The notes beneath the pieces are model-generated. The model did not search any database. It was not told where the DNA came from and was given only the letters and a program-made list of their open reading frames with translations. From a bacterium (GTDB lineage: Bacteria; Bacillota_I; Bacilli_A; RF39; UBA660), in assembly GCA_030525085.1 (NCBI GenBank), contig JAUNFK010000001.1, forward strand, positions 13,516 through 77,515: a DNA stretch of 64,000 nt, read 5' to 3'. Positions within the stretch are counted from its first letter, which is position 1. Each line of letters begins with the position of its first letter. Both the position numbers and the translations under genes were made by a program. Positions 3,602 to 59,778 of this stretch are shown piece after piece.

Positions 3602-3620
3602 AGCTTAGGCTCTTTTTTTA
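3600..3620 (+). terminator. Intrinsic terminator after the coupling-protein gene
   Basis: AGAGC-ttag-GCTCT hairpin followed by TTTTTT. Confidence 0.6.
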
Positions 3621-3652
3621 TTCACAAAAAAATAATAAACATATAATACAAT

Positions 3653-3868
3653 ATGAAAACAATAAATATAAAAGACTACCACAAAGATGGTACATTTATT
3701 AACCTCGAAAAATATCAAGGAGCATACGAAAATTTAATATTAAATCATCAAAAATACTTTGATAAAAAAAAGAAATATTATATATATTGTTCTAAAGGAG
3801 TAAAGAGTAAAAGAGTTACCTCAATTCTTGAAGCATATGGATACAATGTTACAAGGGTTACAGATTAA
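3653..3868 (+). CDS. Small single-domain rhodanese-like protein
   Basis: Active-site loop-like 'YCSKGVKSKRV' followed by 'LEAYGYNVTRV'. Length is 71 aa. Confidence 0.5.
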   Translation: MKTINIKDYHKDGTFINLEKYQGAYENLILNHQKYFDKKKKYYIYCSKGVKSKRVTSILEAYGYNVTRVTD

Positions 3869-3944
3869 CTCTTTTTCCACGTGTGGAAAAGAAGAAAGAA
3901 ATTTATAAGTGAAAAGCCGTATAATTAAATACGGAGGGCATATT

Positions 3945-5330
3945 ATGTTAAAAATTAAAACAAATTCAAAAGAAGTAAAAGAGGGGGATACTTTTGTAGC
4001 TATCAAAGGATATACTGTTGATGGACATAAATATATAGATGAAGCGATAAAAAAAGGTGCCAAATTTATAGTAGCAGAGCATGGCTCATATAGCGTTCCA
4101 ACTCTAATCGTACCAGATACAACAGAGTACCTAAAAAATCATTTGAAAGAAGAATACTCAAAAGATTTTGCAGACTTAAAGTTTATTGGTATAACTGGAA
4201 CAAATGGAAAAACAACAACTGCACTTTTAACAAGTGAAACACTAAATGAACTAGGTGAGTCATCTGCCTATATTGGAACTGTAGGCTTCTATATAAATGG
4301 TAAACTAGTAAGAGAACTTCCAAACACAACACCAGATATCTTAACTCTTTATAATCTTATTTATGAAGCTAAAGAAAAAGGCGCAAAATACATTGTAATG
4401 GAAGTAAGTAGTCATGCCTTAGCACTAGGAAGAATAGAAGGAATTAGCTTTGACAGTGCAGCCTTTACTAACCTTACAGAAGACCATCTAGATTATCATA
4501 AAACAATGGAAGAATACCTAAAAGCTAAAAAGAAGATCTTAACTCATCTTAAACCAGATGCTACAATGATTGTAAATGGGGACGATGAGCACGCTAAAAA
4601 TTTTGAAACAGACAAAACAATAAAAATTGGTAACAAAAAAGGAGATATAGCTTTTCTAGATTATGAACCAGACACAACTGGCACTAAAATATGGTTTAAA
4701 TACTTCGATAGACAATTTGGTGTAAGAACAAATATGTTATGTGAATTTAATGTATATAACTACCTAACATCACTTGGATTAGTTACATCACTAGGATTCG
4801 ACCCTAAAAAAGTTGTATCATGCGCAGCTAAACTTAATCCACCAAAAGGAAGAAATGAAGTAATAAACGTAAATGGTAATAGAGCAATAGTAGACTATGC
4901 ACATACACCAGACGCTGTTCAAAAAATAATTGAATCAAATAGAGAAGTTACAACAGGAAGAATAATCACTGTAGTTGGTTGTGGCGGAAACAGAGACCCA
5001 CTAAAAAGACCAATAATGGGTAACATTGCAACTGAACTTTCAGACATAGTTATCTTTACTGATGATAACCCAAGAGAAGAAGACGATATAGCTATTTTAA
5101 AAGACATTGTAGAAGGAGTATCTAAAGATAACTACATAGTGGAACCGGATAGAAGGAAAGCCATAATAAGTGGATTAAATATGTTAAAACCAGGTGATAC
5201 ACTTTTAATTTTAGGAAAAGGTCATGAGGACTACCAAATAATAGGCAAAGAAAAACATCACTTCAGTGATAGAGAAGAAGTGGAAAACTATATAAAATCT
5301 AATGATAAAGATAAAAACAAAACAATATAG
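3945..5330 (+). CDS. murE: UDP-N-acetylmuramoyl-L-alanyl-D-glutamate--2,6-diaminopimelate ligase
   Basis: GGAGGG RBS before ATG 3945. The Mur ligase P-loop is 'GITGTNGKTTT'. The 'DDNPREED' (DNPR) motif is associated with meso-DAP specificity. Confidence 0.9.
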   Translation: MLKIKTNSKEVKEGDTFVAIKGYTVDGHKYIDEAIKKGAKFIVAEHGSYSVPTLIVPDTTEYLKNHLKEEYSKDFADLKFIGITGTNGKTTTALLTSETLNELGESSAYIGTVGFYINGKLVRELPNTTPDILTLYNLIYEAKEKGAKYIVMEVSSHALALGRIEGISFDSAAFTNLTEDHLDYHKTMEEYLKAKKKILTHLKPDATMIVNGDDEHAKNFETDKTIKIGNKKGDIAFLDYEPDTTGTKIWFKYFDRQFGVRTNMLCEFNVYNYLTSLGLVTSLGFDPKKVVSCAAKLNPPKGRNEVINVNGNRAIVDYAHTPDAVQKIIESNREVTTGRIITVVGCGGNRDPLKRPIMGNIATELSDIVIFTDDNPREEDDIAILKDIVEGVSKDNYIVEPDRRKAIISGLNMLKPGDTLLILGKGHEDYQIIGKEKHHFSDREEVENYIKSNDKDKNKTI

Positions 5331-13317: not shown

Positions 13318-14194
13318 AAACGCTCCTTAAATAACTAAGTGTATTATTAAGTACAATTGTTGATCTAGGTGCAATAAAATCATAACTTCTTTCTAAATAA
13401 TGTTCATTATATCTTAAGAAAGTATATGTCTTCAAATTCTTCATATCTATATATAAACCAAGAATATTTTCAGAGCTCTCATGAATAAACTTTCTATAAT
13501 CATCTAAATAATCTAAATTAAGAAGCTTAAGATAAGTACTAACAAACTTAATCCCATTAAAATCATAAGCCTTAAATCCATTTTCTTTAAATGCTTTAAT
13601 TTTATCACTCATATCAGTAGGTATAAAATATTTTTCAAGCATCCCATCAAATGTCTCATCAAAACCCATTTTTTTAATAAGTGCTTTATCACTATCTTTA
13701 TATCTAGCATTAAGCCCATAACTACTATCATCCATCGAAGCAATATAAACTAAGTTTTTCTCATAATCACTAAACTCATAAAAACTAGAGCACATATCAT
13801 AAATCGCAAGGCATGTACTAACATAATCTGTAACAATAACTTTTACCATACCTGCATCAGGATGATGATCAATAGCTCCTAGTACCAAAGAAGCATCTCC
13901 AATGCTTTGATTAACATCATTATGATCCGTTAAAAAATAATTATATTTAGAAATATCTTCCTTATCTAATATAAAAGGAGAGTAATCAAGATTGTCCATA
14001 ACTTGTTTTGCGCAGTCATCACTAACTTTTTCACCATCAAGAACTGCATACTCAGCATCATACCCCAAAGACTTTAATATATTACTCATTAAATAAGAAG
14101 AAAAGATTGTATCAGTATCAGGCTTCTTATGTCCAATAACTAAAATCTTTTTACTTCTATCTAAATTATTAATTAAATCTAAAATACTACTCAT
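13301..14194 (-). CDS. DHH-family phosphoesterase, family II inorganic pyrophosphatase (PpaC)-like
   Basis: 'ILVIGHKKPDTDTIFSS', 'LTDHNDVNQS' and 'IDHHPD' follow the DHH motif order seen in PpaC-type enzymes. Confidence 0.6.
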   Translation of the reverse strand: MSSILDLINNLDRSKKILVIGHKKPDTDTIFSSYLMSNILKSLGYDAEYAVLDGEKVSDDCAKQVMDNLDYSPFILDKEDISKYNYFLTDHNDVNQSIGDASLVLGAIDHHPDAGMVKVIVTDYVSTCLAIYDMCSSFYEFSDYEKNLVYIASMDDSSYGLNARYKDSDKALIKKMGFDETFDGMLEKYFIPTDMSDKIKAFKENGFKAYDFNGIKFVSTYLKLLNLDYLDDYRKFIHESSENILGLYIDMKNLKTYTFLRYNEHYLERSYDFIAPRSTIVLNNTLSYLRSVYEQDI

Positions 14195-19062: not shown

Positions 19063-19115
19063 GCAAAGAACATAACCAAAAACCTAAAATTACATAAAAT
19101 ACACTAGAAAGGATA

Positions 19116-19388
19116 GTGTATTTTTTTATGTATAGATCTAATCGCTGCGTAGAAGAGGGCCCAGCTATGACTGCAACATTCCCAAAAGAAGCATGTGAAC
19201 CAATCTATGAATGCCCATGTGAAAGAGTTTGTCATAGAGAAATTAATCATGTAGTACCTCATATGCAACCAGTAAACACTAGAATAATCAACCATCATGT
19301 ATATCATCACACATACACTCCATGCTATACATGCTGTGAAGAAAACGAAATCACTCACGTATACGACTGCAATCCATGTGGTAAATAA
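19116..19388 (+). CDS. CotD-like Cys/His-rich spore coat protein candidate (start may be ATG 19128)
   Basis: 'HVVPHMQPVNTRIINHHVYHHTYTP' resembles the His-rich repeats of Bacillus CotD. A hairpin with a T-tract lies at about 19388-19412 on the plus strand. Confidence 0.5.
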   Translation: MYFFMYRSNRCVEEGPAMTATFPKEACEPIYECPCERVCHREINHVVPHMQPVNTRIINHHVYHHTYTPCYTCCEENEITHVYDCNPCGK

Positions 19389-19453
19389 AGCCTCTAAAGA
19401 GGTTTTTATTTTGCCTTACATCTGCTATAATAATCGTAGAAAAGAGTGAGTTT

Positions 19454-25887: not shown

Positions 25888-25919
25888 AATTAGCCTCATA
25901 AATTTTATTGGAGGCATAA

Positions 25920-26180
25920 ATGGAAATTTTAAAAGTATCAAGTAAAAGTAATCCTAGCAAAGTAGCAGGAGCTATCGCCAACGTATTTAGAGAACAAGGC
26001 ATAGCAGAAATTCAAACAATTGGAGCTGGAAGCTTAAACCAAGCAATCAAAGCTGTCGCAATTGCTAGAGGATTTGTTGCTCCAAGTGGTAAAAATCTAG
26101 TAATTATTCCTGCATTCTCGGATATAATGATAGACGGTTCAGAAAAAACTGCTATCAAACTTATAATAGAAGCCAAATAG
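25920..26180 (+). CDS. spoVS: Stage V sporulation protein S
   Basis: 86 aa. 'LKVSSKSNPSKVAGAIA' and 'IQTIGAGSLNQAIKAVAIARGF' match SpoVS closely. Confidence 0.9.
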   Translation: MEILKVSSKSNPSKVAGAIANVFREQGIAEIQTIGAGSLNQAIKAVAIARGFVAPSGKNLVIIPAFSDIMIDGSEKTAIKLIIEAK

Positions 26181-26237
26181 GTTTCTTTTTTGATGCAAAA
26201 ATATTAAGAATTTGATATAATATCACTGGCGATTTAT

Positions 26238-40301: not shown

Positions 40302-40519
40302 TTTCATAAAAATATCTTAAAAAAATCACACGTTTTTCACAATTCTATAATATCATTAAATCATGAAAGGAAAAGGTGATAAATAATAAGATAAAAAACA
40401 ATTATTAAATACGTTTAAAAATTATTAATTTGATATAATACTATTTTACATTTCCAAAAAATATAAGAAGACTGGCACCAACCAGTCTTTTAAAAAGGCT
40501 TTTATTATAGAAAAACATA

Positions 40520-40528
40520 TGATATAAT
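40520..40528 (+). promoter_or_regulatory. Extended -10 promoter element for the tRNA
   Basis: TGaTATAAT ends 8 nt before the tRNA 5' end. Confidence 0.5.
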
Positions 40529-40536
40529 TCAGATAT

Positions 40537-40610
40537 GCTGATTTAGTTTAGTGGTAGAACAGAAGCATGGTAAGCTTCAGAGGACTGTTCAATTCAGTCA
40601 TTCAGCACCA
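40537..40610 (+). tRNA. tRNA-Thr (anticodon GGU), CCA encoded
   Basis: Hand-folded cloverleaf. Acceptor stem GCTGATT/ATTCAGC has one U-U mismatch. D arm is GTTT-AGTGGTA-GAAC. Anticodon stem GAAGC/GCTTC carries the loop AT-GGT-AA. T arm is GACTG-TTCAATT-CAGTC, followed by discriminator A and CCA. Confidence 0.9.
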
Positions 40611-40621
40611 TTTAACAAACG

Positions 40622-40643
40622 AATCCCAACAGGGATTTTTTTA
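40622..40643 (+). terminator. Intrinsic terminator after the tRNA
   Basis: AATCCC-aaca-GGGATT followed by a T-run. Confidence 0.7.
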
Positions 40644-40702
40644 TTTATAAAAAATTTAAAAAGCATGATACAATATTACTAATAGATCTGGAGGAATGTA
40701 AA

Positions 40703-54684: not shown

Positions 54685-55479
54685 ATGATGATCGAAGTTA
54701 TGATACTTGGTATCATATTATATATAATTTTAGAGTACAATGGCAGCATTAGTACCAATAAATTTATTATGGACAACCAAGATATCTTTAAAAAACTAAA
54801 AGAAAAAGATTATGACTTCTATGCTAAAGCTAAATATGGTGATTCAATTGATGTAGAAGCCCTATTTAATGCAAGATTAAAAAATGGACTTATCGTTATA
54901 TTCCTATTAATATTTGCTTTTATCTCAAAGTTAAGCTACGTAAACTGTATATTTTCAGTAGTAGTTGGTTATGGTGTATATAAACTAAATTACCTTAAAC
55001 TTAAAAGACATTACAAAGCACACTTACATGAAATAGATGTTATGCTTCCATACTACTTAAAAAACTTAGAAATACTTGTACAACACTACACAGTACCAGT
55101 AGCACTAGGTAAATCAATCGATGAAGCACCACAAATATTCAGAAGTGGTCTTAATGAATTAATTGCAAAGATCAATGCTGGAGACTCAACAATCAACCCA
55201 TACATGGAATTTGCAAAAGACTTCCCAGTAAGAGATTCTATGCGTATGATGCGTTTGCTTTACAGACTTAGCTTAGGTAGTCAAGAAAGAAAACAAGAAC
55301 AATTATTAACTTTCTCAAGAAATATTTCTAACCTACAACAAAAAGCTCGTGAAACAAGATACAAAGAACGTTTAGAAAAGATGGAAAGTAAAACAATGGT
55401 AATGCTTATTTCAACCGGAGTAGGTGTAATGGTATTACTTATTATCTCAATCTTAATGCTATTTACAAGTAGCATGTAA
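54685..55479 (+). CDS. TadC-like (T2SSF-type) inner-membrane platform protein
   Basis: AGGAGGTGA RBS. The architecture matches the preceding gene. This is the second platform paralog, as in tadB-tadC pairs. Confidence 0.5.
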   Translation: MMIEVMILGIILYIILEYNGSISTNKFIMDNQDIFKKLKEKDYDFYAKAKYGDSIDVEALFNARLKNGLIVIFLLIFAFISKLSYVNCIFSVVVGYGVYKLNYLKLKRHYKAHLHEIDVMLPYYLKNLEILVQHYTVPVALGKSIDEAPQIFRSGLNELIAKINAGDSTINPYMEFAKDFPVRDSMRMMRLLYRLSLGSQERKQEQLLTFSRNISNLQQKARETRYKERLEKMESKTMVMLISTGVGVMVLLIISILMLFTSSM

Positions 55480-55480
55480 T

Positions 55481-55510
55481 AAATGACTAATTTAAGTCAT
55501 TTTTTATTTT
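55481..55510 (+). terminator. Intrinsic terminator after the tadC-like gene
   Basis: AAATGACT-aattta-AGTCATTT followed by a T-run. Confidence 0.7.
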
Positions 55511-55530
55511 ATAAAATTTTAAAAAAAATA

Positions 55531-55559
55531 TTGACACATTAAATAAAATAATGTACAAT
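55531..55559 (+). promoter_or_regulatory. Near-consensus sigma-A promoter with no ORF behind it
   Basis: TTGACA (55531-55536), 17-nt spacer, TACAAT (55554-55559). An A/T-rich UP-like tract precedes it. Confidence 0.6.
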
Positions 55560-55562
55560 AAA

Positions 55563-55786
55563 ATTGTCTAATAGTAAAGGGTATATATTAGAACAATGAT
55601 TTGTGTGTATTTTAAAGAAATGCATATAAAAAATGTACTTTTATATCAGACAATTAAAAGTAATATTTTTACCAAAATTAAAGTGTTACTTAGTCATTAA
55701 GATATAGGTATAATTGTCTTATATATACAAATAGCATAGAAGCTTTGAAATATAAGTCTTATCTGCGATAGACATAACAATTGTTA
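55563..55786. repeat. Dispersed AATTGTCT / AGACAATT motif copies plus the palindrome TAACAATTGTTA
   Basis: AATTGTCT occurs at 55563-55570 and 55712-55719. The inverted copy AGACAATT lies at 55648-55655. A 12-nt perfect palindrome lies at 55775-55786. Confidence 0.7.
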
Positions 55787-55897
55787 CGGAGAAAGAATAC
55801 TCCAAAAGATAAGTGGTAAATATAATACTGATAATGTTATATTGATCCATTCTTTAAAACTGGAACTAGTTATTTTATCAGAATAACTAGTTTTTTT
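55566..55897 (+). ncRNA. Candidate ~330-nt non-coding RNA of unknown class
   Basis: Bounded by the promoter at 55531-55559 and the terminator at 55864-55897. The track lists no ORF of 60 aa or more on either strand. Internal complementary segments are present. Family is unknown. Confidence 0.4.
55864..55897 (+). terminator. Strong intrinsic terminator of the candidate ncRNA
   Basis: An 11-bp perfect stem, AACTAGTTATT-ttatcag-AATAACTAGTT, runs into TTTTTTT. Confidence 0.8.
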
Positions 55898-55945
55898 ATT
55901 ACCCAAAACTATTTAATTAATATCTCTTTTTTTATTACAATCTTA

Positions 55946-55974
55946 TTGCAAAAAAAAACTAAGTTTGTTATAAT
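55946..55974 (+). promoter_or_regulatory. Promoter of the four-gene McrB-like operon
   Basis: TTGCAA, 17-nt spacer, TATAAT, with an extended -10 (TGtTATAAT). GAGGT RBS precedes ATG 56000. Confidence 0.6.
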
Positions 55975-55999
55975 TTTTAATAGAATAGAGGTAGGTTAG

Positions 56000-57136
56000 A
56001 TGATATGCGATTTATATGGTTCATATTTTAATTATAAAGTAAGAACATTAAACGAATATGCCTTGGCTCTAAGTAAAATAATAGGAATTAAAGATAACAA
56101 ACTATTTAGTAACCAAAGATTACGTAACGACTTCTGGCCATTTGTAATCAAAGACTATTTAAATAGATATACTGAATCTGTTCCACTAAATAAATACTTA
56201 GTAAAAGGTTTTTTAAATGAAAAAGAAATAACAAACTTTGACCTAGAAGAAGAAACAATGAGTATTATAAACTATCTTATTAAAAAGAACATTGTCCTAA
56301 AAATAGCTGAATACAAAGAAAGCATTATCCTAGCAAGTTTTATTTTAAAAATAGCAAATTACATTGATATTCTAACTAGTCCATTTACCAAAAATCAAAA
56401 CAACTATAGCACACTTTGTATAAGTGCTATCAATGAAGCAAACAAAGTAAAATATATTAGTTTAATAGACAATGGTAAAAAAGAAACAAATAACCTTTTA
56501 AATACAGTTAAAGAAAACGTTAAAAGAGAAAGAAAATTCTTTGAATCTTTAACTAATGTTAGCTCATTTAATAAATATATTGATATATCACAAGAAAACA
56601 TCTACTACTTAGCACAATATAACTATCGCATACCTAACTTAAATAAATATGATGAATACGCGGTAAAAGATATCTATGATAACCTAGGTGTAGATGATGC
56701 TTTCGCTCTTATTAGTGCAAATCTTATGGTAGCTAGTCTACTTAAACTATTCTCAATAAGAAAACCATTTAAGACATTATTCTTACCATTAAGAAAAAGC
56801 TTCTTAGATAATGAGAAAAACATTAAAGATTTAAGCCTACTATTTAAAGATAATAAATTACATAAAAATATTAAAATATTAATAAATTATGGCGAAGCAA
56901 CTAAAGAGATTATAAGCACACTTACAAGATACAAATTAGATTTCTACATTTACTGTAGTCGTAGTAGTGCAGCTACATCTGGAAAACTTATAGAAGACGC
57001 TAAGAATTACTTGGTTAGCAAAGAATTCTATGATAACAACAAGAATATTATATCTAAATGGAAAACCTTAGATATTAATATAATAAAAGAAGAGTTTGAT
57101 GGCATCGTAACAGACGCACGTCTGCTCATAGATTAG
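56000..57136 (+). CDS. Hypothetical cytoplasmic protein (gene 1 of operon)
   Basis: 378-aa ORF with no TM segment and no motif recognised. Confidence 0.55.
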   Translation: MICDLYGSYFNYKVRTLNEYALALSKIIGIKDNKLFSNQRLRNDFWPFVIKDYLNRYTESVPLNKYLVKGFLNEKEITNFDLEEETMSIINYLIKKNIVLKIAEYKESIILASFILKIANYIDILTSPFTKNQNNYSTLCISAINEANKVKYISLIDNGKKETNNLLNTVKENVKRERKFFESLTNVSSFNKYIDISQENIYYLAQYNYRIPNLNKYDEYAVKDIYDNLGVDDAFALISANLMVASLLKLFSIRKPFKTLFLPLRKSFLDNEKNIKDLSLLFKDNKLHKNIKILINYGEATKEIISTLTRYKLDFYIYCSRSSAATSGKLIEDAKNYLVSKEFYDNNKNIISKWKTLDINIIKEEFDGIVTDARLLID

Positions 57137-57152: not shown

Positions 57153-58652
57153 ATGGGAATTAACGGAGAGTTTTTTCTAAAATTTTTAGAGCCATTCTTT
57201 GGCGGACTAGTAGCATTTTTCAAAGCAATAGGTGCTGCACTAGTAAAAATATTTAATATTGCTACATACTTTGACATTATCAAAGAATATAAAGGAAAGG
57301 GAAGTAGCACAATAGTAATTATTCTAGGTGTACTTGCACTTATCATACTATTTGCTGTTATTGCACTATTAATATTCCTACTTGTTAGAAGAATAATTAA
57401 ATGGCGTCATAACGTAGCTCATCATGAAAAACTAGTTGAAGAAATTGAAAGCCTAAATAATGATGTAATTCGCCTAAGAAACGAAAATCAAAAATACATG
57501 GAAATGGCTGATCCTAATGCTGGCGTTGAATATGATGAAGATGGAAACATCACTAATAAACTTAGTGAAGGAGAAAGCAGATTCTTCAAACTTACTCAAA
57601 TTGATGAAAAATATAAAGACTATGTTGCTCCAGTGCTTAATGAAACAATTTCTCTAGAAGGTCTATGTGAAATGTTTAGAAACTACTCAGCTAGTCAAAT
57701 GAAACTATATTACTCAATAGATTTAATTAGATTATATATTGCATCATTTGCATCAAACAGATTAATTATTTTACAAGGTATTTCTGGTACAGGTAAAACA
57801 TCACTAGCATATGCATTTGGTAACTTCATCAAAAATGAAGCAGTTATCGCAAGTGTACAACCATCATGGAGAGATAGTACAGAACTATTTGGTTACTTCA
57901 ACGAATTTACAAAACGTTTCAATGAAACAGAAGTATTAACAAAAATGTATGAAGCAAAATACAATCCAAGCATTTTCATCACTCTATTAGATGAAATGAA
58001 CATCTCACGTGTTGAATACTACTTCGCACAAATGCTATCTATTCTAGAATTGCCTAGTACAGATGAATGGGTATTAGAACTAGTTCCAAACGCTTGGGAT
58101 AATGACCCTAAATTAATTGATAATGGACGTTTACAAATTCCAGATAACATGTGGTATATCGGTACAATCAATAACGATGACTCAACATTCATGATTACTG
58201 ATAAAGTATATGACCGTGCTATGCCAATCAACATTGATACTAAAGGAGTTGCTTTCGATGCCCCTAAAACTGATGCTCTAGACATCACCGCTAAATACTT
58301 CCTATCATTATTTGATAAAGCAAGAGCAGAGCACCCAGTAAGTAAAGAAACAATGGATAAAATAGCAAAAATGGATGACTATGTTATTGAACACTTCCGT
58401 TTAGCATTTGGTAATCGTATCGTAAAACAATTAAAAGACTTCGTCCCAGCATATATTGCTTGTGGTGGAGAAGAAATTGTTGCAGTAGACTACCTAATTG
58501 CAAATAAAATTTTAAGAAAATTTGACCAATTAAACTTAGCTTATATTCGTAATGAAATTGACGGATTTGAAGCTTACTTAGATGAATTATTTGGTGAAAA
58601 TAAAATGGTTGAATGTAAAGCATTCCTAGAAAGACTAAAAAAGACAATATAA
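57153..58652 (+). CDS. Membrane-tethered, coiled-coil McrB-like AAA+ GTPase (gene 2)
   Basis: Hydrophobic N-terminus including 'IVIILGVLALIILFAVIALLIFLLV' followed by 'RRIIKWRH', then the coiled coil 'EKLVEEIESLNNDVIRLRNENQKYMEM'. The rest is co-linear with E. coli McrB: 'LIILQGISGTGKTSLA' (Walker A, nt 57777-57800), 'LLDEMNISRVEYYFAQMLSILE' (Walker B, nt 57984-58001) and 'IPDNMWYIGTINNDDSTFMITDKVYDRA' (NxxD signature, nt 58161-58181). Confidence 0.7.
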   Translation: MGINGEFFLKFLEPFFGGLVAFFKAIGAALVKIFNIATYFDIIKEYKGKGSSTIVIILGVLALIILFAVIALLIFLLVRRIIKWRHNVAHHEKLVEEIESLNNDVIRLRNENQKYMEMADPNAGVEYDEDGNITNKLSEGESRFFKLTQIDEKYKDYVAPVLNETISLEGLCEMFRNYSASQMKLYYSIDLIRLYIASFASNRLIILQGISGTGKTSLAYAFGNFIKNEAVIASVQPSWRDSTELFGYFNEFTKRFNETEVLTKMYEAKYNPSIFITLLDEMNISRVEYYFAQMLSILELPSTDEWVLELVPNAWDNDPKLIDNGRLQIPDNMWYIGTINNDDSTFMITDKVYDRAMPINIDTKGVAFDAPKTDALDITAKYFLSLFDKARAEHPVSKETMDKIAKMDDYVIEHFRLAFGNRIVKQLKDFVPAYIACGGEEIVAVDYLIANKILRKFDQLNLAYIRNEIDGFEAYLDELFGENKMVECKAFLERLKKTI

Positions 58653-58674: not shown

Positions 58675-59778
58675 ATGAATATGGATTTCAGTTTACTAGT
58701 AAAAGATATTCCAAAAGACGATTTAGAACTTTTCTTAAAAAAGACTAATGGTACTTTTACTGCTAAAAAAAATGTTAATAAAGTAGCTGTAGATTATGGA
58801 TGGGTTGATGTTCTTAATGAATCCATCCCTTATCTTGATAATATCATTCGTAATCCAAGAAGATTCATTGCTCAAGAAGAAGATATTATTCCTATTGAAA
58901 AAACTAAAAAAGTATCTGAAGAATCTATTAAACACTTAGCAACTCATACTCAGTTAATTCAAGAAGTAGACGATGATGGCACTGTAAAACCATTAAAACT
59001 ACTTAATATTTTTAAAGAAGAAACAATTGACCTTTATGAAAACAGATTTATCTATTCATTAATTACTAATCTTTATGTTTTCTTAAGAAACCAACTTACA
59101 TATCAAGAAGAAGAACAAGAAAACAAAGAAGAAAAAAGAATCACATATGAAGCAAGTACTAAAATGAATGGAGAAGACGTTAACTTCTCAATGAGCATTT
59201 CTGCTAATAAATTTGATACGACTAAAGAAGATCCTAAACTAGTTGAAGAACGTAATGAAAAAATCAAAAACATTAAAGATATTCTAGAAGGCTTTATGGC
59301 TAGCAAATTCATGAAAACCATGGCAAATGCAACCCCAGTTAGAAGTCCAATTAGAAAGACAAACGTTATCTTAAAAGAACAAAACTTCATTAAAGCTCTA
59401 GCACTTTGGGAATTCCTAGAAAAATATCAAATTGAAAAACCTATAAAAAGAGAAGAAGAAGAAACAGTTCTAAATTATAAAAACCTAGAAAAAAATCTTG
59501 GCGTTACATATTACATGAACTACAATCTTCTAGAAGATACTGTAAAAAGTGGCGGACAAGATAAAATGTCTTACGGAACAGATATTATCTCATCAGTAAG
59601 ACAATATGCAAGAAAGTTTAATGTAAACGAATTAGATTTAAAAAAGGAAATTGAAAAAGAAATAAAATTAGCAACAAAATACAAAGAAGAACAAATTACA
59701 AGTATTAAAGGAATATACAAAACATTCCTTGATAGTAATAAATCAAGATTTGATAAAGCAATCTCTATACTTAAATAG
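58675..59778 (+). CDS. Partner protein in the McrC position; possible DUF2357/McrC-N-like, no nuclease motif seen (gene 3)
   Basis: AAGGAG RBS. 'ETIDLYENRFIYSLITNL' resembles the ENRF-type motif of McrC-like N-terminal domains. The C-terminal half is charged and coiled, and I could not find a PD-(D/E)xK pattern in it. Confidence 0.4.
   Translation: MNMDFSLLVKDIPKDDLELFLKKTNGTFTAKKNVNKVAVDYGWVDVLNESIPYLDNIIRNPRRFIAQEEDIIPIEKTKKVSEESIKHLATHTQLIQEVDDDGTVKPLKLLNIFKEETIDLYENRFIYSLITNLYVFLRNQLTYQEEEQENKEEKRITYEASTKMNGEDVNFSMSISANKFDTTKEDPKLVEERNEKIKNIKDILEGFMASKFMKTMANATPVRSPIRKTNVILKEQNFIKALALWEFLEKYQIEKPIKREEEETVLNYKNLEKNLGVTYYMNYNLLEDTVKSGGQDKMSYGTDIISSVRQYARKFNVNELDLKKEIEKEIKLATKYKEEQITSIKGIYKTFLDSNKSRFDKAISILK

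Follow-up and report, generated by a model that had tools for sequence, protein, structure and literature searches.

A PGK-family RNA of an RF39-lineage gut bacterium is probably a stand-alone, structured and dimerizing transcript

The PGK RNA motif (Rfam RF03040) is an orphan element of 92 nucleotides (nt) to which Rfam assigns the type Cis-reg. We report here that a member of this family, lying in a 520-nt intergenic spacer of an uncultured bacterium (GTDB lineage Bacilli_A; RF39; UBA660), is probably the 3′ core of something larger, namely, a stand-alone gene for a structured noncoding RNA of about 333 nt that would act in trans and would probably dimerize. The spacer occupies positions 55480-55999 of the window, by which we mean the whole 64,000-nt stretch of DNA that was analyzed (positions 13,516 to 77,515 of the forward strand of contig JAUNFK010000001.1, assembly GCA_030525085.1), and the RNA is encoded on the plus strand. 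To judge from the searchable literature, the real size and architecture of the PGK family are new, whereas the 92-nt Rfam core was already known.

The transcription unit and its PGK core

The spacer is the largest gap in the window between open reading frames (ORFs) of at least 100 amino acids (aa). Neither of its strands holds an ORF of at least 60 aa, and its ATG-initiated frames comprise 34 codons (55596-55700) and 24 codons. It contains a σA-type promoter, TTGACA-17-TACAAT, which matches the consensus at 11 of 12 positions, lies behind an A/T-rich tract, and is the top promoter-like site between 54500 and 57000. It also contains an intrinsic terminator, in which AACTAGTTATT (55864-55874) pairs without mismatch with AATAACTAGTT (55882-55892) around the loop TTATCAG, with a predicted fold energy of -12.5 kcal/mol. 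An earlier reading of the sequence (the first-pass annotation) had described the 520-nt spacer, the lack of longer ORFs, the 34-codon frame, the promoter with a single mismatch and the perfect 11-bp hairpin followed by a T-run, and all of these were reproduced. Its statement that the next largest spacer measures 235 nt was not: with ORFs of at least 100 aa as boundaries, the other large gaps measure 307, 350, 391 and 401 nt. These gaps lie at 3602-3908, 25888-26237, 19063-19453 and 40302-40702; the last of them holds a tRNA at 40537-40607, and the remaining three are without an Rfam match at the gathering level.

Promoter-like hexamer pairs are not rare in the DNA of the window (12 observed versus 16.6 expected from shuffled sequences), and because they are as common as in shuffles the hexamer pair alone is not significant. 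We judge the promoter to be real because it is conserved in relatives. Its -35 sequence is retained in the closest of these (loci L045, L048 and L079), tracts like TTTTAAAAAAAGTATTGACA are found 5′ of the -35 in many family members, and the promoter is often preceded by TTTTAAAAAAAGT. The terminator escaped our terminator scan because its stem has two G-C pairs, whereas the scan required at least three. The positions of the promoter and the terminator give the boundaries of the predicted transcript (Table 1), and this segment has a predicted fold energy of -73.7 kcal/mol, versus -52.6 +/- 4.2 kcal/mol for shuffled sequences (z = -5.1). A second promoter-like site, TTACTT-17-TATAAT, is located inside the RNA gene just 5′ of the core (55686-55714). 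We rejected it as a feature of the family, as it falls in a diverged stretch and is not conserved in L045, L048 or L079.

The 3′ portion of the predicted transcript genuinely belongs to the PGK family. It matches the entire 92-nt model with a score of 79.7 bits, versus a gathering score of 50.8 bits (E = 5.9e-11), and it exhibits all of the structural features of the model: a P1 helix (CUUAUC/GAUAAG) that encloses a GAGAAAG...CUC hairpin, and a 3′ hairpin with the conserved loop ACUGAUAAU. An Rfam scan of the whole window gave two matches only, a tRNA and PGK, and no other credible match was found in the region 55400-56050 at E values up to 10. Of the proposed transcript, about 27% is spanned by the model; a portion of about 70%, including the 5′ domain, the long-range helix P0, helix P3 and the terminator, lies outside any Rfam model. 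The first-pass annotation had proposed a candidate novel structured RNA and had named a clear Rfam match as the outcome that would speak against it. That outcome holds for the 3′ core, and to this extent the RNA is not wholly novel. The other part of the proposal, a structured noncoding RNA bounded by a promoter and a terminator, is upheld by the conservation of the promoter, by covarying helices, among them one formed by the extreme 5′ end, and by full-length contigs from a relative (see below). The remaining element of the Rfam description, the label of a cis-regulator for a downstream gene, is a type and not a structural feature, and it does not fit this locus, for reasons that we return to below. 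PGK originated in a 2017 survey of 224 candidate RNAs (Weinberg et al. 2017, PMC5737381), the main text of which is silent on it, and the searchable literature yielded nothing relevant under PGK motif, PGK RNA or RF03040.

Relatives were found by scanning a collection of one genome per species with a pattern built from invariant positions of the core. The promoter, P0, the palindrome described below, P3, the linker and the terminator loop were outside the pattern. The scan returned 70 loci, each from an uncultured gut or rumen metagenome-assembled genome (MAG) labeled as Bacilli, Tenericutes/Mycoplasmatota, Erysipelotrichaceae or 'Clostridium sp. CAG'. There was one locus per genome, with five loci carrying two tandem copies, and on rescanning of canonical loci 13 were above the Rfam threshold (58-90 bits). 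In most loci a near-consensus σA promoter lies about 120-350 nt 5′ of the core. Among 74 family units, TTGACA is exact in 51 and the spacer is 17 nt long in 61, and the promoter is found just 5′ of the 5′ strand of P0. Meanwhile, a hairpin followed by a T-run is located 40-140 nt 3′ of the core in all but 5 of 76 copies, and the length of the transcription unit across the family is 212-520 nt. Compared across the three closest relatives, the spacer proves to be a mosaic, in which conserved blocks (the -35, the first 22 or so transcribed nucleotides, hairpins H1 and H2, the core and the terminator) alternate with diverged stretches. Comparison of the sequences shows that a predicted transcription unit, with its promoter, its terminator and a conserved terminator loop, recurs across about 70 relatives.

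Five divergent copies fall below the Rfam threshold for PGK, these being the short forms of about 215 nt at L035, L046 and L062 together with L040 and L073. All five retain the promoter, P0, the GAGAAAG hairpin, the P2 loop and an AAACUCG linker, and they have a plain terminator loop and a palindrome of only 6 nt. At the three short-form loci an L10 leader lies about 1-5 kb away. A looser, 19-base pattern applied to viral contigs gave eight matches, none of which was PGK, and the pattern was tightened for the genome scan. Three chance matches (L009, L012 and L016, on IMG/VR contigs) sit on contigs with manA RNA motifs (RF01745, 195.9 bits), which are unrelated. The phage and plasmid collections that were scanned contained no match to the RNA.

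Helices, palindrome and terminator loop

The extreme 5′ end of the RNA is predicted to pair, as helix P0, with a segment located just 3′ of the 5′ strand of P1, in a loop that Rfam leaves unpaired. In a partner-swap test with 28 distinct helix sequences, cognate strands scored 17.0 versus 11.8 for swapped strands, and none of 5000 permutations reached the observed mean. In alignment A1, P0 exhibits both-sided changes at seven of seven pairs, and the helix was recovered unaided by RNAalifold from nine full-length sequences. Its strands differ between lineages, as in ACCUAGA/UCUAGGU, UUGUCC/GGACAA, UUGCUUAG/CUAAGCAA, UUAGUAUAGG/UCUAUACUAA and UAAACUAG/CUAGUUUA. Because the 3′ strand of P0 is inside P1 and its 5′ strand is upstream of P1, the two helices would form a pseudoknot. 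Covariation shows, then, a predicted helix that would clamp the variable 5′ domain onto the core in a pseudoknot with P1. In many lineages a 5′ (U)AGAUAA directly follows P0.

Covariation also shows that the predicted helices P1, P1a, P2 and P3 and the terminator stem have been maintained. Among 39 representatives, 98.3% of the alignment cells are paired in P1, one pair of which displays CUAAUC/GAUUAG double changes, and 98.1% are paired in P1a, the closing pair of which covaries (UA in 23, GC in 8 and AU in 4). The P2 stem has double changes at five of five pairs, with 96.3% of cells paired. P3, inside which lie P2 and, in most lineages, an inserted hairpin that varies, scored 13.9 for cognate strands versus 10.1 in the family-wide partner-swap test, again with none of 5000 permutations reaching the observed value, and RNAalifold finds covarying pairs in it. 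For the structure as a whole, 86.4% of cells are paired, versus 75.6% for shuffled sequences; sliding the partners by 1-3 columns leaves no more than 48% paired. Conserved structure in homologous regions, which the first-pass annotation had proposed to look for, is thus borne out by P0, P3, P2 and the terminator stem, all of which covary across relatives. The remaining hairpins belong to a lineage-specific 5′ and middle domain. H1 has compensating changes in L045, L048 and L079 and is predicted by RNAalifold from nine sequences; the H2 block is conserved in the same three loci, in which A-to-G differences yield U-G wobbles, a support that comes from close relatives only. We also considered whether the GAG of P1a might pair instead with the linker AAACUCG, and rejected this because the variable position of the linker shows no covariation with P1a. 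Two complementary pentamers, GAUAA and UUAUC, are found repeatedly in the RNA, both in the strands of P1 and in the P2 loop versus the terminator loop, and the (U)AGAUAA that follows P0 in many lineages is a further instance.

Between P0 and P1a lies a self-complementary segment that is a candidate for a dimerization site. A palindrome of at least 10 nt (10-16 nt, with G-U pairs allowed) is present in 31 of 34 distinct family sequences, versus 18% of shuffles. The central tetramers are of eight kinds (AAUU, UAUA, GCGC, AUAU, GUAC, ACGU, UGUA and UAUG), all of them self-complementary. Its adjacent central columns read UA in 17 sequences, AU in 16, CG in 3 and UG in 2, and the next pair reads AU in 30, GC in 3 and GU in 3. 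Since neighboring nucleotides cannot pair with each other within one strand, covariation of adjacent columns points to an intermolecular contact. Kretsch et al. (bioRxiv 10.1101/2024.12.08.627333) made this argument, from adjacent-nucleotide covariation of palindromic loops, for symmetric intermolecular kissing loops in OLE and GOLLD, and the signature on which it turns, covarying and self-complementary adjacent nucleotides, is found in the PGK family. Predicted energies for the palindrome are in keeping with such a contact, averaging -0.4 kcal/mol for the hairpin versus -11.3 kcal/mol for the homodimer duplex across the family and being about 0 versus -10.8 kcal/mol for the copy in the window. 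The evidence that two RNA molecules would pair through the palindrome at 55775-55786 is good, though indirect. The dimerization initiation site of HIV-1 is a short hairpin with a self-complementary hexamer, the palindrome of which is kept while its sequence varies by lineage. By analogy, the PGK palindrome appears likewise to be maintained while its sequence differs between lineages. The biology is unrelated, however, and in PGK self-complementarity runs over all of the 10-16-nt segment, for which a hairpin within one molecule is predicted not to be stable; an extended duplex and a loop-loop kiss are therefore equally likely.

A further contact is suggested by the terminator. Its loop, UUAUCAG, is the complement of CUGAUAA (55828-55834), a stretch of the invariant P2 loop. 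A 7-9-nt exact complement of the P2 loop is held by the terminator loop (which, as noted, was outside the search pattern) in 36 of 39 representatives. In alignment A1 the terminator stem covaries freely, while the loop is conserved. The G of the P2 loop appears to be invariant: among 241 million metagenome records, variants with a base other than G at this position (ACTHATAAT) included no true family member, the sole match being a chance occurrence in unrelated G-rich DNA. We infer that the P2 loop docks the terminator loop through a 7-bp contact, either within one molecule or between partners.

These features suggest how the RNA might be built. It would be transcribed from the strong σA promoter and ended by the intrinsic terminator, and P0 would clamp its 5′ end onto the core. 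The palindrome would pair with that of a second molecule to give a symmetric homodimer or a higher multimer. Docking of the terminator loop on P2 would make the terminator hairpin part of the fold, and both ends of the RNA would be buried, which would explain its stability. The RNA would act in trans as a folded particle or as the scaffold of a ribonucleoprotein, and not as the leader of a neighboring gene. For the family at large we put forward, tentatively and as a picture that we hold somewhat less probable than its alternatives taken together, that PGK is a highly expressed RNA of 0.2-0.5 kb from uncultured gut Bacilli rather than a 92-nt cis-regulatory motif, and that it assembles into a symmetric homodimer or a larger RNA-only complex. 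The covarying palindrome would then be the dyad contact, and the P2 and terminator loops would be kissing contacts, possibly domain-swapped. If this is true, PGK would be a small relative in kind of the quaternary RNAs OLE, ROOL and GOLLD.

Table 1. Features of the PGK locus in the window, and metatranscriptome contigs of the relative L071 (positions in L071)
Feature	Position	Strand	Details
UP-like A/T-rich tract	55509-55530	+	5′ of -35; read directly from the sequence
σA-type promoter	55531-55559	+	TTGACA (55531-55536), 17-nt spacer, TACAAT (55554-55559)
Predicted primary transcript, about 333 nt	55565-55897	+	Start about 6-7 nt past the -10; end at end of T-run
P0, 5′ strand (UGUCUA)	55565-55570	+	Extreme 5′ end of the RNA; partner 55769-55774
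H1 hairpin	55600-55630	+	Lineage-specific 5′/middle domain; predicted -10.1 kcal/mol
H2 hairpin	55658-55691	+	5′/middle domain; predicted -7.5 kcal/mol
PGK core (RF03040)	55751-55841	+	Model positions 1-92
P1, 5′ strand (CUUAUC)	55758-55763	+	Pairs with 55808-55813 in the Rfam model
P0, 3′ strand (UAGACA)	55769-55774	+	Just 3′ of the P1 5′ strand, in a loop Rfam leaves unpaired
Palindrome, 12-mer UAACAAUUGUUA	55775-55786	+	Self-complementary; candidate dimerization site; between P0 and P1a
P1a hairpin (GGAG-AAAGAAUA-CUCC)	55788-55803	+	Invariant GAGAAAG; Rfam alignment; in the search pattern
P1, 3′ strand (GAUAAG)	55808-55813	+	Rfam alignment and alignment A1
P3, 5′ strand (GUGG)	55813-55816	+	Pairs with 55847-55850; not in the Rfam model
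P2 hairpin	55819-55843	+	Invariant loop ACUGAUAAU (55827-55835); Rfam alignment
P3, 3′ strand (CCAU)	55847-55850	+	Partner-swap test; RNAalifold covarying pairs
Single-stranded linker (AAACUNG)	55857-55863	+	Near-invariant columns in alignment A1; outside the search pattern
Intrinsic terminator	55864-55897	+	11-bp stem, loop UUAUCAG (55875-55881), T-run to 55897
L071 contig, run X29	4051-4484		Depth 30
L071 contig, run X33	4042-4447		Depth 31
L071 contig, run X34	4072-4486		Depth 5
L071 contig, run X30	4170-4491		Depth 19

Expression and alternative readings

Transcripts of the relative L071, the predicted unit of which is 4030-4494 on the minus strand, are present in independent metatranscriptomes. 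In addition to the contigs of Table 1, a fifth run (X31) reaches position 4496. The RNA spans the unit from within 1-10 nt of the predicted transcription start site to the terminator, coverage ends at the homologous hairpin, and depth is 0 on both flanks, save for short partial matches of unrelated contigs. The L071 unit is a discrete, abundant RNA, with a start that lies a few nucleotides at most from the predicted one and with no detectable read-through. For the organism of the window itself, two putative RNA contigs were recovered at a depth of 2-4, one each in two runs from different studies (55697-55864 and 55713-55863). They are the only real matches across 24001-64000, and the locus therefore outshines all of its neighboring genes. 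Because these contigs cover only the 3′ part, it is from the relatives that we infer full-length transcription in this organism; the absence of the 5′ part could be due to low depth, to processing or to breaks in assembly.

Could the element instead be a cis-regulatory leader, that is, a riboswitch or a protein-dependent attenuator that senses a signal and whose terminator gates the downstream operon of a 378-aa protein, an AAA protein and a DUF2357 protein (McrBC-like, PDC-M26A-like)? The Rfam label says as much, and in most loci the RNA and the gene downstream point in the same direction. The order RNA, 378-aa gene and AAA gene is kept in the diverged locus L030 (with 41% and 69% protein identity and a different upstream gene), in the largest lineage an ORF of about 120 aa begins 12-46 nt after the T-run, and the recurring GAUAA/UUAUC complementarity, together with an alternative partner for the 5′ strand of P1, could be the mark of a switch. 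A riboswitch or attenuator, however, would be expected to have its terminator directly 5′ of an ORF, with no promoter in between. Here the gene that begins at 56000 has a promoter of its own, TTGCAA-17-(TG)TATAAT (55946-55974), which is conserved in L045, L048 and L079. Such an element would also be expected to control functionally coherent genes across species, whereas the genes found downstream are non-homologous across lineages and functionally unrelated, and a few of them are on the opposite strand. They encode the signal-anchored protein of about 120 aa, a Fic/winged helix-turn-helix protein, a dUTPase, a small methyltransferase, PrsA-like, LPG-synthase-like and DUF2130 proteins, and the 378-aa protein. 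The last of these follows the RNA in 6 of the 70 loci, with the AAA partner in three of those six, and tad-like genes adjoin the RNA in L045, L048 and L079 alone. The synteny of the RNA with the 378-aa and AAA genes is limited by lineage, and the suggestion of the first-pass annotation that the RNA might regulate or belong to one of the neighboring operons gains no support from these counts or from the operon's own conserved promoter. Further evidence against a leader comes from L071, in which RNA depth is 5-31 versus 0 past the terminator (six runs). It comes as well from the terminator itself, in which the loop and not the stem is the conserved partner of the core. No conserved antiterminator was noticed in the alignments, in which no systematic search for one was made. 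Finally, the scan found one locus per genome, with one or two copies. On balance we consider it unlikely that the element is a leader.

Another way to account for the observations would be two units, in which the strong promoter produces a 5′ RNA of about 130 nt, or nothing stable, and the core is transcribed from the promoter-like site within the gene (55686-55714) or results from processing near 55697. It is true that the contigs of the window organism begin at 55697 and 55713 and are without the 5′ part, that run X31 assembles only the 5′ 180 nt or so of the L071 unit (at a depth of 85-359), and that the internal site has a perfect -10. But even L045, L048 and L079 do not conserve that site, and both contigs start 5′ of the start site that it would give. 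Covariation in P0 requires one molecule or complex that contains both the extreme 5′ end and the core, and single full-length L071 contigs were obtained in three runs. At a depth of 2-4, moreover, the missing parts may simply reflect low coverage, and two separate units strike us as quite improbable. We attach very little probability to the view that the spacer is a small-protein gene, using for example the 34-codon frame, or that it is a chance pairing of promoter and terminator without a product. Frames of 34 and 24 codons do exist and promoter-like hexamers are common in A/T-rich DNA, but no ORF is conserved across the family, in which the longest sense ORF is 0-55 aa and small clusters mix strands and positions. 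In addition, indels that are not multiples of three separate the 34-codon frame from its counterparts in the closest relatives, and the pattern of conservation is that of a base-paired RNA. A conserved translated small ORF, which the first-pass annotation had raised as a possible explanation of the region, was accordingly not found in the family.

Several observations nonetheless weigh against a stand-alone, trans-acting and dimerizing RNA. In the one large lineage with the 120-aa ORF, the short distance past the terminator leaves scant room for a promoter of that gene's own. An ORF that abuts the terminator in this way fits read-through control, and in that lineage the element may meet the expectation that no promoter intervene. 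Since neither the P2 loop nor the terminator loop varies, no covariation is seen for the contact between them. In the three short-form relatives the P2 loop is present without a complementary terminator loop, and therefore the P2 loop must have an additional role. Support for dimerization consists of sequence symmetry and predicted energies. Because P1a, part of P1 and the P2 loop were fixed in the search pattern, those elements are subject to an ascertainment bias. RNAalifold gives an alternative partner for the 5′ strand of P1, and parts of the predicted fold may switch conformation. No run was found that holds the first 130 nt of the RNA of the window organism, the contigs of which cover only the 3′ core, and the contigs in general carry neither strand information nor exact ends.

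Comparison with other RNAs, and genomic surroundings

With the published PGK motif (RF03040; PMC5737381) the locus shares P1, the GAGAAAG hairpin and the ACUGAUAAU hairpin, and its relatives all come from uncultured gut or rumen MAGs of the Firmicutes type. The model differs in being 92 nt long, in being typed as Cis-reg, and in being without the promoter, the 5′ domain, P0, the palindrome feature, P3 and the conserved-loop terminator found in the family here. OLE, ROOL and GOLLD (Kretsch et al.) are likewise orphan, highly structured RNAs of unknown biochemical function, with which PGK has in common the adjacent covariation of its palindrome. Unlike them, the PGK RNA is smaller; it has no sequence or model similarity to them (there being no Rfam match to them at the locus at E values up to 10), and its multimerization is a prediction. 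Like the raiA motif RNA (PMC12968392) and 6S RNA, both of them housekeeping noncoding RNAs of Firmicutes that are abundant and stand alone, the PGK RNA has its own strong promoter and terminator, is present at one locus per genome and is abundant relative to neighboring genes. It differs from these two in being without model similarity to them, in having no 6S rod with a central bubble, and in its apparently much narrower phylogenetic range.

PGK has been, up to now, one of many orphan Rfam motifs represented by a short metagenome alignment. If, as we propose, what Rfam annotates is one fragment of an RNA of far greater size, then the functional class to be sought would shift from a riboswitch or leader to a trans-acting RNA particle, and the very few natural RNAs listed as possible multimers would be joined by a further candidate. 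The analysis also supplies exact construct boundaries for biochemistry and cryo-electron microscopy. The RF39-like gut Bacilli appear to be uncultured, all 70 of the loci being from MAGs, and an RNA that stands above neighboring genes in metatranscriptomes could be both a marker for these bacteria and a clue to their biology.

As to the surroundings of the RNA, the upstream neighbors across lineages encode an Fe-hydrogenase or EF-P. In the downstream operon of the window, the first gene (56000-57136, 378 aa) has no match in Pfam, NCBIfam or PADLOC. The second (57153-58652) encodes the AAA protein, which matches PDC-M26A, a candidate defence family of PADLOC (E = 2e-40), and DUF2357 (McrC-like) is found at 58675-59778. 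In L041, a MAG of an uncultured gut 'Clostridium sp.', an OLE RNA (RF01071, 213.9 bits) is located at 2096-2578 on the plus strand, 2.7 kb from the PGK-family RNA, and two large orphan RNAs therefore coexist in one genome.

The tandem copies, found in L032, L038, L039, L083 and L086, are 800-1200 nt apart. In the four loci with both flanks resolved (L032, L039, L083 and L086), the order is RNA, signal-anchored protein of about 120 aa, RNA, and wherever the locus reaches that far, L038 included, a Fic/winged helix-turn-helix gene follows the second copy. Finally, metagenome run X5 contains two variants of the locus in the window (55849 and 55890-55927). In one of them, 36 nt directly 3′ of the terminator are skipped, and in the other, a contig fuses a different PGK-like P2 hairpin (...AAATACTGATAATATTT...) to the terminator region of the window, which points to strain variants or to a second copy in the community.

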